A stretch of 32,000 nt of DNA. Origin: Edaphobacter aggregans (lineage in GTDB: Bacteria; Acidobacteriota; Terriglobia; Terriglobales; Acidobacteriaceae). Positions 2,137-12,908 of this stretch are shown here, in pieces; the stretch's first letter is position 1, and every line of letters starts with the position of its first letter. Where the stretch lies: assembly GCF_003945235.1 (NCBI RefSeq), contig NZ_RSDW01000001.1:780001-812000 (forward strand), given 5' to 3'. Both the position numbers and the translations under genes were made by a program. Under the pieces are notes generated by a model that ran no database searches, was not told the DNA's origin, and saw nothing but the letters and a program-made list of their open reading frames with translations.

Positions 2137-2213
2137 GCGCCCGTAGCTCAGCTGGATAGAGCATCTGGCTTCGAACCAGAGGGTCGGAGGTTCGAATCCT
2201 TCCGGGCGCACCA
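2137..2213 (+). tRNA. tRNA-Arg (anticodon TCG)
   Basis: 77-nt cloverleaf. Acceptor GCGCCCG/CGGGCGC, D-arm AGCTCAGCTGGATAGAGC, anticodon stem TCTGG/CCAGA with loop CTTCGAA, T-arm GGAGGTTCGAATCCTTC, and an encoded CCA. Confidence 0.95.
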
Positions 2214-2338
2214 ATCGAATCAATTGGTTAGAGGGTTTTGACCCGGAATCGAGTCACGATAAGGCGAGATTACAGGGGGCTCGAGGAAGAATGGATTCAA
2301 CGTTCCCTGGGGTCTCCAGCTATGGAGGGTGACCAGAG

Positions 2339-3103
2339 TTGACCTATGACAACTTGTTTGCTCTCTCAGGGCGAATTCTCGTCACCGGCGGCACGCGAGG
2401 GATTGGCCGCGCTATTTCACTTCGCTTTGCAAGAGCCGGCGCATCGGTAACTGCGAATTATCTCCGCAATCAAAAAGCTGCAGACGAGTTGAAGGCCACC
2501 GCAGAGCAAGAAGGTCTGTCGATTGACCTGTGTCGTGCCGACATCACCACCCCCCGCGGCCTTGAGCAAATCGAAAGCTCCGTCCACGACACTGGTGGAT
2601 CTCTTTCCGGGCTGGTTCATTGTGCGGCGACGGGTGTGCACCATACTCTTTCCGAACTCAATGTGCGCCACTTCGATTGGACGTTCGCACTTAATGTGCG
2701 GGCGTTTTTTGAATTAATGCAGGTCCTCATGAATCGGTTTTCGGAGCGATCAAGCGTGGTGGCGGTCAGCTCGATCGGTGCTCAGCGTGCTTTGCCCTAT
2801 TACTCTCTGGTCGGTGCATCGAAAGGTGCGCTCGAGGCGTTCGCCCGACATCTCGCGGCGGAACTGGCGCCGAGAGGGATTCGCGTGAATATTCTTGCCC
2901 CCGGCATGGTCGCGACCGAAGTCTGGAAGGTCCTTCCGGAAGCAGAAGCCCGCGTTGCCGCCGCAATCAATCACACTCCGATCCGACGTTTGGTGACTCC
3001 CGATGAGGTGGCATGGGCCGCCCAATTCCTCTGTTCCCAGGCATCGATGGGAATAGTTGGACAGACCTTTGTTGTTGATGGGGGAGCAGCGATTGTGGGG
3101 TAA
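2339..3103 (+). CDS. SDR-family reductase, FabL-like enoyl-[ACP] reductase candidate
   Basis: Contains the TGGTRGIGRAI Rossmann motif. The active-site segment SSIGAQRALPYYSLVGASKGALEAF has Y-x6-K spacing, as in FabL/FabI-type enoyl reductases, rather than the classical YxxxK. The start is TTG, preceded by GGAGGG. Confidence 0.8.
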   Translation: MTYDNLFALSGRILVTGGTRGIGRAISLRFARAGASVTANYLRNQKAADELKATAEQEGLSIDLCRADITTPRGLEQIESSVHDTGGSLSGLVHCAATGVHHTLSELNVRHFDWTFALNVRAFFELMQVLMNRFSERSSVVAVSSIGAQRALPYYSLVGASKGALEAFARHLAAELAPRGIRVNILAPGMVATEVWKVLPEAEARVAAAINHTPIRRLVTPDEVAWAAQFLCSQASMGIVGQTFVVDGGAAIVG

Positions 3104-3139
3104 GATCGTCAACGTCACTTGAGTGGATGAGGAGGGAAG

Positions 3140-11700: not shown

Positions 11701-12847
11701 AGTCGGAATCCGAGATGACTTCTTCGAGATGGGCGGGGACTCGCTCGACGCGGTTCGACTTCTTCTTAGAATTCTCGCTGCGTTTCCTGCATGCCAACCC
11801 TCACTCGCCGTACTACTGAAGGCTCCAACTGTAGAGCAGTTCGCACGCACTCTCAACAGCGGGCAAGCCGATTGGTCGTGTCTGGTGGCGGTGCGGGAAG
11901 GTAACGAGCGGCCTCCATTCTTTTGTGTCCATGGTGCTGGAGGGAATGTGCTCAGCATGCGGGATCTGGCGATGGCTCTTCCACCCAGCCTGCCGTTCTA
12001 TTGCTTGCAGGCGCGAGGACTTGACGGCCACGCCGCTCCGTTTTCCAGCGTCGAAGAAACAGCGGAGTTCTATATCGACCAGATCCGGAACGTGCAATCC
12101 CACGGTCCTTACTACTTAGGTGGTGGATGCTACGGAGGTCTGGTCGCCTTTGAGATGGCCCGCCGTCTTCGATCCATGGGTGAGACTGTTAGCGTGGTGG
12201 CGCTGATGGATACCTGGAATTTCGCATACGGACGTTTCATCTCGAAACCGAAGCTGTTTTACTTCAACTCGCGTTTTTTCCTGCGGAGAACCCTCCACCA
12301 TATGAGGACGCTCAGCGAGGTAAAGCCGCGAGATTGGGCAGGTTACTTTTTAGGTCGCGCCAAAACCTTTCTACAGCTGGCGAAATCTGTGGCCCGAATA
12401 GCCGAAGGCGGAGACGAGACTCAGTTTCCGGTTAGCCTCGTGGACACTAAGCTTCAGGGACTAGAGAGCCATGGAGAATTGCGGCAGATTCTGGAGCGGG
12501 TTCGGAACGCAAGCCACGTGGCAGCACTAAATTTCATTCCAAAACCCTACGACGGTCATCTCCTCGTGTTCAGCGCAAGAACGCGAGTTGATGACCCATA
12601 TCGCGATGAGGCGCTTGGTTGGAGCCCTGTGGCACTGTGCGGCGTGACGTCCCATGTAATCGATGGGGACCATCTATCGATCTTCCGCAGCCCCGCGGTA
12701 GGCGCGATTGCCGAGAAGTTGGACAGGGCTCTTCAAGATGCGCAGCAGACTAGCCAGGAGAGTATTCAAAGCCGGGAAGCATTTCTTGTACAAGAACGAT
12801 CAGAGGCTGAACTGGGAGAGATCAAATCCGCTGGGACGCAGATGTAA
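8762..12847 (+). CDS. single-module non-ribosomal peptide synthetase, domain order C-A-T-TE
   Basis: This is the internal Met of ORF 8582..12847; the upstream part overlaps the FabZ-like gene in another frame. C motifs are [13 protein letters not shown] and HHILMDG. A motifs are [75 protein letters not shown] and [10 protein letters not shown]. The T motif is [12 protein letters not shown]. TE motifs are [16 protein letters not shown] and DGDH. Confidence 0.95.
   Translation: [1361 protein letters not shown]
8771..10066 (+). other. NRPS condensation (C) domain, N-terminal position
   Basis: The C1-like motif [13 protein letters not shown] lies at the extreme N-terminus. The HHxxxDG catalytic motif is at 9161-9181. 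Boundaries are approximate. Confidence 0.8.
10124..11596 (+). other. NRPS adenylation (A) domain, glycine-like specificity code
   Basis: A1-A10 core motifs are present. Hand alignment to GrsA-PheA gives the 10-residue code D-M-P-Q-V-G-L-I-W-K. Boundaries are approximate. Confidence 0.8.
11639..11845 (+). other. NRPS thiolation (T/PCP) domain
   Basis: GGDSL motif, with the Ser codon at 11741-11743. Confidence 0.85.
11903..12736 (+). other. NRPS thioesterase (TE) domain with Cys nucleophile
   Basis: An alpha/beta-hydrolase layout. The oxyanion region is FCVHGAGGN. The nucleophile elbow reads G-G-C-Y-G (Cys codon 12128-12130) where GxSxG is expected. Asp is in VALMDTW (12209-12211) and His in DGDHLSIF (12671-12673). 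Confidence 0.8.
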
Positions 12848-12877
12848 AAAGTATCTGGGCCACTCACCCTGCGAGAA

Positions 12878-12908
12878 TCGGAGGTCCGAATCCTTGCGGG
12901 CGCGACCC
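12878..12908 (+). repeat. degenerate direct copy of the tRNA-Arg(TCG) 3' end (att-like remnant)
   Basis: TCGGAGGTCCGAATCCTTGCGGGCGC (12878-12903) versus the tRNA segment TCGGAGGTTCGAATCCTTCCGGGCGC (2184-2209), giving 24/26 identity. It is then followed by GACCC where the tRNA has ACCA. It lies in the 71-nt gap between two convergent stop codons. No tRNA 5' half lies upstream. Confidence 0.6.

Follow-up and report, generated by a model that had tools for sequence, protein, structure and literature searches.

Islands carried by P4-type integrases sit at tRNA genes, as do the Yersinia high-pathogenicity island at tRNA-Asn, the islands at leuX or pheV of E. coli and the Mesorhizobium symbiosis island at tRNA-Phe. 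Integration sites within tRNA genes are said to fall into sublocation classes, reportedly set out by Williams in 2002. Old islands of this type often lose the integrase and let the flanking repeat decay, and tandem arrays with successive attachment (att) repeats are found at several enterobacterial and pseudomonad tRNA hot spots. Here we analyze a 32,000-nt stretch of an Edaphobacter aggregans contig (NZ_RSDW01000001.1, 780,001–812,000; hereafter the window, meaning the whole stretch), in which an eight-gene operon for lipid–peptide biosynthesis, ending in a nonribosomal peptide synthetase (NRPS), is bracketed by an intact tRNA-Arg(TCG) gene (2137–2213, plus strand) and by a degenerate direct repeat of the 3′ end of that tRNA, with its core at 12878–12903. 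With modest confidence, we consider this repeat probably to be an attR-type duplicate of the tRNA-Arg 3′ end, now decayed, that was left at a tRNA hot spot.

With the tRNA-targeting islands, the locus shares the intact tRNA at one end, the direct repeat of its 3′ part at the other, a cargo absent from the site in relatives, and the use of the same tRNA by an integrase element in a related metagenome contig (L165, see below). It differs from them in that the window holds neither an integrase nor element arms, in that its composition is not atypical, in that its downstream flank is not matched to an empty site, and in that the operon is integrase-free in every other genome examined. With the tandem accretion arrays, it shares two modules in series behind one tRNA, each present elsewhere in a relative and each ending in a tRNA-Arg(TCG)-like remnant, the distal one more decayed. 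There are differences here as well: the statistics of the second remnant are weak, no remnant goes with a third segment (15.7–17.9 kb), and the site is a tandem pair of isoacceptor tRNAs, both collecting DNA. Integrase-less tRNA islands with decayed repeats are textbook, and no new mechanism is involved; the feature is an ordinary degenerate tRNA-linked island in an under-studied phylum. The titles and abstracts of the literature gave nothing specific on this type of operon, its product, or tRNA islands in Acidobacteria.

The source of the repeat is the 26-mer TCGGAGGTTCGAATCCTTCCGGGCGC (2184–2209), the stretch that immediately precedes the discriminator base of tRNA-Arg(TCG). Its copy, TCGGAGGTCCGAATCCTTGCGGGCGC, occupies 12878–12903 on the same strand with two mismatches, between the stop codon of the NRPS (12847) and that of a convergent gene for an 812-aa protein (12919); the initial annotation had described both the 24/26 match and its position, and both are upheld. 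No match with three mismatches or fewer occurred in 100 dinucleotide shuffles of the window. Without gaps, the repeat grows to 31 nt (12873–12903, 87%), and allowing a 1-nt gap it also takes in ACC, so that the degenerate copy of the T-arm and of the acceptor 3′ strand can be placed at 12873–12907 (plus strand). Over the whole window, ARAGORN and Rfam call two tRNA genes and no other, the tRNA-Arg(TCG) already named (Rfam RF00005, 72.4 bits) and a tRNA-Arg(ACG) at 17961–18037 on the plus strand. The two are 94% identical, and TCGGAGGTTCGAATCCTTCCGGGCGC is also found within tRNA-Arg(ACG) with one mismatch. Counted from the sequences, the 31-nt repeat matches TCG at 27/31 and ACG at 24/31, and the 26-mer at 24/26 and 23/26. 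A closer match to TCG, as first proposed, does hold in the window, but it is weak evidence, because the 3′ 26-mers of the two tRNAs are identical in the close relatives L085, L086, and L166; which gene was the source of the fragment is barely resolvable.

Read from the sequence, the two substitutions change the T-loop from TTC to TCC and disrupt the pair that closes the T-stem; therefore, the repeat is not a working tRNA part, and it is not under tRNA-like constraint. Neither ARAGORN nor Rfam finds a cloverleaf or covariance-model match at 12830–12910. The absence of a tRNA 5′ half before the repeat, another point of the initial annotation, is confirmed as well: a gapped alignment of the 58 nt on its 5′ side to the 5′ part of the tRNA is marginal (p ~0.04), and the likeness to the D-arm and anticodon stem (15/20) overlaps the operon-tail homology of L001, the closest relative of the operon. 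An extension of the repeat into the anticodon arm, marginal and sitting in operon-derived sequence, was rejected. Among ~170 related loci, lone tRNA-Arg fragments occur only at the same locus in the same-species contigs L082 and L171–L173, and at the attR of L165. The repeat is thus, on these ~170 loci, not a dispersed one.

The fragment is at the same place in the same-species contigs L082 and L171–L173, which are 97–99% identical to the window, and a fifth such contig, L083, has the tRNA–operon junction. The 26-mer is unchanged in L171–L173, where the next bases are AACCG against GACCC in the window; in L082, four clustered differences are seen at the 3′ end of the fragment, near a contig end. 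The species is fixed for this arrangement, and the tail of the fragment drifts. The locus offers a concrete, dated example of a biosynthetic gene cluster becoming fixed in the chromosome of a soil acidobacterium, in a group that has many such clusters and has been little studied.

The ancestral state of the locus was sought in relatives that share its left flank. That flank is formed by a gene of the HAD-family hydrolases (246–863, minus strand; Pfam HAD_2 and Hydrolase), 87% identical in nucleotides and syntenic in L163, L164, and L165, and by a gene for a small conserved protein of ~93 aa, weakly HMA-like (1799–2080, plus strand), which serves as an anchor before tRNA-Arg across Acidobacteriaceae. 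A metagenome scan with the small protein gave 80 anchor loci, to which protein look-ups add L163–L168, L178, and L179. In most anchor loci with enough downstream sequence, a tRNA-Arg (TCG or ACG) follows within ~60–700 nt of the anchor, mostly within ~140 nt; the same order of small protein and tRNA-Arg occurs in L163–L168 and in E. flagellatus. In the closer relatives, the anchor gene is followed by tRNA-Arg(TCG) and tRNA-Arg(ACG) with a variable spacer between them: 102 nt (L085 and L086), 194 nt (L098), 389 nt (L096), 1.1 kb (L166), ~1.45 kb (L090, L095, L168, and Edaphobacter flagellatus CP073697, or L178), and 2.2 kb (L167), compared with 15.7 kb in the window. A conserved 40-nt upstream region together with tRNA-Arg(ACG) (17921–18037, plus strand) is the ancestral right-hand neighbor of tRNA-Arg(TCG): nucleotides 17921–18039 align at 88–94% to L085, L086, L090, L096, and L098, where they lie 102–1470 nt after tRNA-Arg(TCG). 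In this lineage of Edaphobacter-like Acidobacteriaceae, the ancestral order is HAD, small protein, tRNA-Arg(TCG), tRNA-Arg(ACG), a gene for a ~210-aa protein, and FTR1.

Against that tandem, lineage-specific DNA in the window falls into two blocks, one of 15.7 kb between the tRNAs and one of ~12.5 kb past the second tRNA. Since the tRNAs stand in tandem in relatives, all 15.7 kb between them, and not the operon alone, is lineage-specific. In more than 20 related loci, tRNA-Arg(TCG) is followed by tRNA-Arg(ACG) or by other genes; among relatives with the conserved left flank, the operon is found behind tRNA-Arg(TCG) only in the same-species contig L083. At this site the operon is a lineage-specific feature, and it fits exactly inside the bracket of tRNA and repeat. 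The view that the cargo is exactly the operon needs correction, as the operon is only the proximal part of the 15.7-kb accretion. The empty site anticipated at the outset, with tRNA-Arg(TCG) directly followed by the gene of the convergent protein, was not found in any locus examined; the ancestral neighbor is tRNA-Arg(ACG). None of the relatives examined has more than two tRNA-Arg genes at the locus, and no scar above chance was found in the spacers of other relatives. Behind the tRNA, L084, L087, and L166–L168 have ordinary genes without scars.

The operon (2339–12847) starts 125 nt behind tRNA-Arg(TCG) on the same strand. It counts eight genes, as first stated, assigned by Pfam or, for the ACP, from its open reading frame (ORF). 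All are on the plus strand: a short-chain dehydrogenase (SDR, 2339–3103), an ACP (3140–3373), an acyl-AMP ligase (3382–4869), LuxE (ORF 4637–5986), LuxC (ORF 5878–7257), a methyltransferase (7257–8180), a FabA-like dehydratase (8218–8658), and the NRPS with C-A-T-TE organization (ORF 8582–12847). The gene order is the same in L169 and L170.

A scan with the LuxC protein, one genome per species, gave 80 loci (L001–L080), nearly all in acidobacterial metagenome-assembled genomes (MAGs). In most of these loci, DNA-level conservation covers the first seven genes (~2340–8660); for the downstream NRPS, it is confined to the closest relatives. This seven-gene cassette, from SDR to FabA, is widely distributed among Acidobacteriota MAGs of peat and soil and is also present in some bins labeled Syntrophobacteraceae, Verrucomicrobiota, and others. 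The closest copies containing the NRPS are L001 (87.5% nucleotide identity), L170 (86.9%), and L169 (~85%). Their alignments to the window start at 2324 (L001 and L170) or 2338 (L169) and end at 12865 (L001), 12809 (L170), and 12766 (L169). The flanks of these three copies are unrelated to those of the window, and the copies are away from any tRNA: a TonB-type outer-membrane protein is the upstream neighbor in L169 and L170, and the downstream neighbor is an MMPL transporter in L001 and an outer-membrane efflux protein in L170. At E < 1e-8, no flank is common to the window or L001 and the 80 LuxC loci. The operon thus behaves as a discrete module set at different places in different genomes.

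Both edges of the module can be placed in the window. About 240 nt of upstream DNA are common to L001 and L170 and absent in the window, where operon homology begins just 15 nt before the start codon of the SDR; the window operon appears to have arrived without its native upstream region. In its place stands a junction leader of 110 nt (2214–2323, plus strand), unique to the species, whose likeness to the tRNA trailer of L163 and L164 ends after its first 11 nt. No terminator-like or promoter-like site was called in 2214–2338. At the other edge, the homology to L001 (2324–12865) stops 13 nt before the 26-mer, so that the module edge fits the repeat; the repeat lies outside this homology and outside that of the next module to L081, which starts at 12934.

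The tRNA-Arg genes of relatives do receive integrase elements. In L165, an Acidobacteriaceae metagenome contig (ERZ26871208) with flanks 87–90% identical to those of the window, a 9.8-kb element (L165 5114–14977) lies behind tRNA-Arg(TCG). It carries genes for a resolvase, an AAA_25 protein, a trypsin-like protein, and a 427-aa P4-type tyrosine integrase (Pfam Phage_integrase 1.9e-20, Arm-DNA-bind_3 2.6e-15, Phage_int_M 2.9e-06), and it ends in a copy of the tRNA that starts at position 23 and is perfect over the 34 nt present before the contig breaks off. The integrase adjoins this partial copy on the attR side. L165 thus has an attL/attR pair at the same tRNA gene around a live-looking element, and the related island with a tyrosine integrase at tRNA-Arg that the initial annotation had called for does exist. 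The locus is the same (HAD, small protein), and so is the succession of tRNA, cargo, and direct partial tRNA copy; the L165 element differs in having an integrase, a resolvase, and AAA_25 and no biosynthetic operon, and in its 100% identical repeat from position 23, compared with 92% from about 43–48 in the window. Outside the tRNA, the two have no sequence in common. Left-end sequence of the L165 element is also present in L097. Further occupants are two tandem XerC/D-like tyrosine recombinases directly behind tRNA-Arg(TCG) in L109 (2035–4049), an integrase, HipA, and a DDE transposase behind tRNA-Arg(ACG) in L136 (6814–11630), and, by eye, apparent toxin and insertion sequence (IS) remnants behind the tRNA in L163. 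The tRNA-Arg pair is a general, recurrent insertion hot spot, for which integrase elements are one documented route, not necessarily the sole one. The attL/attR footprint recognized in the initial annotation is a real repeat with the same architecture as L165, although an integrase origin of the window repeat itself can only be inferred. A search of IMG/VR for an attP with the 3′ 28-mer as query gave complete phage tRNA genes only.

A side observation concerns L001, where the exact 11-mer AGAGCATCTGG stands directly after the NRPS stop (L001 12861–12871). It equals positions 21–31 of tRNA-Arg(TCG) and coincides with the point where the att copy of L165 begins; by a rough estimate, the chance expectation for that 100-nt stretch is ~0.002. 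In L001, it is part of an apparent hairpin, with no further tRNA likeness after it. As a tRNA remnant, it was not retained and is left as an unexplained coincidence.

Beyond the repeat, the gene of the 812-aa secreted protein (12919–15357, minus strand) is a second inserted module. Its homolog in L081 is 84% identical in nucleotides; the homology is limited to 12934–15616, and both L081 flanks differ from those of the window, so that the gene, found elsewhere in L081, can be regarded as a movable module in a loose sense. The L081 homology falls between two tRNA-like remnants, the repeat and a candidate second remnant of tRNA-Arg(TCG) at 15680–15722 (plus strand), in the intergenic region on the upstream side of the 812-aa gene. 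The latter, GCATCTGGGCTTCGAAAGGAGAGGGTGAGTTCATTCACTATCC, is a gapped match to tRNA positions 25–67, includes the anticodon loop CTTCGAA, and reaches a gapped local score of 18 against TCG and 10 against ACG; chance scores in related loci go up to 17. An inverted stretch resembling the tRNA 5′ half lies at 15712–15740 (inverted repeats I9 and I12). The region 15680–15740 could represent either a further att scar of greater age or a tRNA pseudogene that has been rearranged. Identity to the tRNA is 92% in the first remnant and ~79%, with gaps, in the second, and the latter hints at tandem accretion in a suggestive way only.

These observations could be accounted for as follows. A tyrosine-integrase element would have recombined with the 3′ part of tRNA-Arg(TCG), rebuilding the tRNA at one end (attL, 2137–2213) and leaving a partial copy at the other. 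The 15.7 kb between the tRNAs would have been built up as at least two modules. The 10.5-kb acyl/NRPS operon, being nearest to the tRNA, would be the most recent arrival, closed by the 24/26 repeat; the module with the 812-aa gene would come next, perhaps closed by the more degraded remnant at 15680–15722. The integrase and all other mobility genes would since have been lost, with the region fixed in the species. Accretion next to the tRNA predicts such an order, and the greater decay of the distal remnant fits it. This account assumes that the repeat goes back to an integrase, that the operon entered as cargo of the scar-making element and not later into an older scar, that the modules accreted in the order given, and that the loss of mobility genes was complete. 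The horizontal acquisition claimed in the initial annotation is supported in that the operon is absent here in relatives and present elsewhere; it does not gain from the composition, which is native, and the operon is only a putative cargo.

Several observations weigh against an integrase scar closing an imported operon. No integrase, excisionase, or other mobile-element gene or remnant was found in the window, either by Pfam on the ORFs in and beside the island or by tblastn and blastn with the recombinases of L165, L109, and L136 and the element genes of relatives. The composition test proposed earlier came out negative: the GC content (0.56) and GC3, the GC content at third codon positions (0.55–0.65), of the operon are inside the range of its neighbors, its tetranucleotide usage does not differ from that of the flanks, and its tetranucleotide correlation with core-like DNA of relatives, 0.87, is the highest of all blocks. 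Compositional deviation was treated as supportive, not defining, for tRNA-targeting islands. The operon homology and the repeat are only 8–13 nt apart, with no recognizable element arm. The window repeat starts at about tRNA position 43–48 and the L165 att copy at position 23; therefore, the window scar and the L165 element are not of the same element type. Within 10 kb of the 80 LuxC loci and of L169 and L170, there is no tRNA-Arg gene, no tRNA-Arg fragment, and no relative of the L165 integrase, and of 83 related operon copies none adjoins a tRNA-Arg gene or a relative of that integrase; the operon is therefore no habitual passenger of such elements. Relatives differ from one another in their tRNA trailers, none of which aligns to the window from 12904 on, so that the flank after the repeat is not matched to any former tRNA-downstream flank. 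The short inserts in the spacers of relatives are scarless, and insertion here is, therefore, not always scar-leaving. As to the second module, the 812-aa gene adjoins the tRNA in no relative, and the score of 15680–15722 has p ~0.001 in the 810-nt intergenic region but ~0.2 window-wide (23% of shuffles, both strands).

Some of these points favor other explanations. The scar could be real and yet unrelated to the operon, the interior of an older element having been lost and the operon having entered otherwise, for example by intragenomic relocation of a vertically inherited cluster. The identity of the operon to L001, L169, and L170 (85–88%) is about that of the flanks to L163–L165 (87–90%); with operon and flank divergence so alike, the data agree equally well with a relocated genus-old cluster and with transfer from a related donor, which also counts against the account given above. 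The loss of the native ~240-nt upstream region and the native composition point the same way. Two independent events would then be needed, however, with endpoints within ~110 nt and ~13 nt of the att boundaries, and no second copy of the operon or donor site is visible in the 32-kb window, so that we find this course of events rather unlikely. Unlikely too, and by a little more, is a cassette exchange by homologous recombination, in which the tandem tRNA-Args and the outer flanks served as arms, DNA of a related strain replaced or expanded the spacer and brought the operon without an integrase, and the fragment arose as a by-product of unequal or abortive exchange in a tRNA copy. It would suit the 94% identity of the two tRNAs in the window and the sameness of their 3′ halves in relatives, the spacer content, which differs in almost every relative and in most comes without scars or integrase, the host-like composition expected from a closely related donor, and the lack of mobility genes with the operon in any context. 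Yet replacement from arm to arm makes no internal orphan 3′ fragment of a tRNA abutting the end of the operon, and in relatives integrase elements use this tRNA and do produce such partial copies.

The repeat could, alternatively, be what is left of a decayed pseudogene: a third tandem tRNA-Arg at 12830–12907 would have lost its 5′ half to the illegitimate insertion or deletion that brought the operon. The gene is already duplicated here (TCG and ACG), the marginal D-arm and anticodon-stem likeness precedes the fragment, and 15680–15740 holds another tRNA-like remnant, in which direct and inverted pieces occur together. We nevertheless give this origin a small chance, since no relative examined has more than two tRNA-Arg genes at the locus, since the upstream likeness is in the L001 operon-tail homology and so came with the operon and not with a tRNA, and since 26 nt at 92% identity preceded by 25 nt that are essentially unrelated fit a repeat with its start at that point and misfit a uniform decay of a whole gene. 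That the repeat is a chance likeness, or a functional RNA or terminator that merely resembles a tRNA T-arm, is very improbable. A terminator would be expected between convergent genes, where the fragment stands, and a hairpin can be drawn through it. Against this, the shuffles gave no chance match, the fold is not unusual (z = −0.6 and −1.0), no T-run follows, Rfam has no match, the 3′ end varies within the species, and the element after the NRPS stop is absent in L001, L169, and L170.

A more speculative picture, which we hold to be improbable, would treat the tandem tRNA-Arg(TCG)/(ACG) pair as a two-slot capture site across Edaphobacter-like Acidobacteriaceae, with exchange mainly through the homology of the tRNA copies rather than by integrases and with the operon, captured without its native promoter region, expressed by read-through from the tRNA-Arg promoter. 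If so, the expression of a secondary metabolite would be tied to a tRNA transcription unit. The conserved locus of small protein, tRNA-Arg(TCG), and tRNA-Arg(ACG) is a hypervariable hot spot that could be a landmark when Acidobacteriaceae MAGs are mined for strain-specific genes. Useful by-products of the analysis are this tandem hot spot and the finding of an operon that stands directly behind a tRNA gene and lacks its native upstream region.

The remaining features concern the distal parts of the window. The 812-aa protein, called a beta-helix protein in the initial annotation, has no Pfam family, and a look-up gave no exact record of it; it has thousands of acidobacterial homologs. Its gene contains a tandem duplication of 268 nt (12932–13199 and 13229–13496, 84% identical) that encodes two copies of a C-terminal domain, after a linker of the PPPSPPPP type. 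The gene after the tRNA in L163 was considered as its counterpart and rejected, as it encodes an isoamylase-type enzyme. Between the candidate second remnant and the conserved region before tRNA-Arg(ACG) are an ORF of 98 aa (15834–16130, minus strand) and a gene for a 574-aa protein (16168–17892, plus strand), both without a solid Pfam family. The DNA of 15834–17892 is present in the same-species contigs L082 and L171–L173 and is not between the tRNAs in any relative examined. The 582-aa protein of L167 and the 571-aa protein of L081 are unrelated to the 574-aa protein.

Directly behind tRNA-Arg(ACG), the second lineage-specific block of ~12.5 kb (18038–30530) encodes a fucosidase, a PD40/Trans_reg_C regulator, a LysR protein, a DUF6629 protein, an aldo-keto reductase, and others. 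No scar of tRNA-Arg(ACG) bounding this block was found. L171–L173 (97.3–97.6% identical) are collinear with the window only to 20315; past the fucosidase gene, they pass straight to an aldo-keto reductase and then to different genes, and 20316 to ~29000 of the window therefore varies between strains. The conserved right flank (30531–32000) comprises a gene for a 203-aa protein (30531–31142, minus strand) and, from ~31283, the start of an FTR1-type permease region. A homolog of the 203-aa gene follows tRNA-Arg(ACG) by ~50–70 nt in L168 and L178, and in L086 the FTR1 region is within 76 nt of that tRNA. By tblastn, the right flank matches L168 at 61% and L086, L166, and L168 at 79–93%; by blastn, it matches L086 and L166 at 77%.

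On the left side, ~900 nt (880–1785) separate the HAD gene from that of the small protein in the window. On the minus strand at 824–1339 lies an ORF that is first Cys/His-rich and then Pro-rich and is overlapped by an alternative frame, and a strong hairpin with a T-run is found at 1586–1603. This ~900-nt stretch is absent from L163–L165, where the HAD and small-protein genes are 70–195 nt apart.

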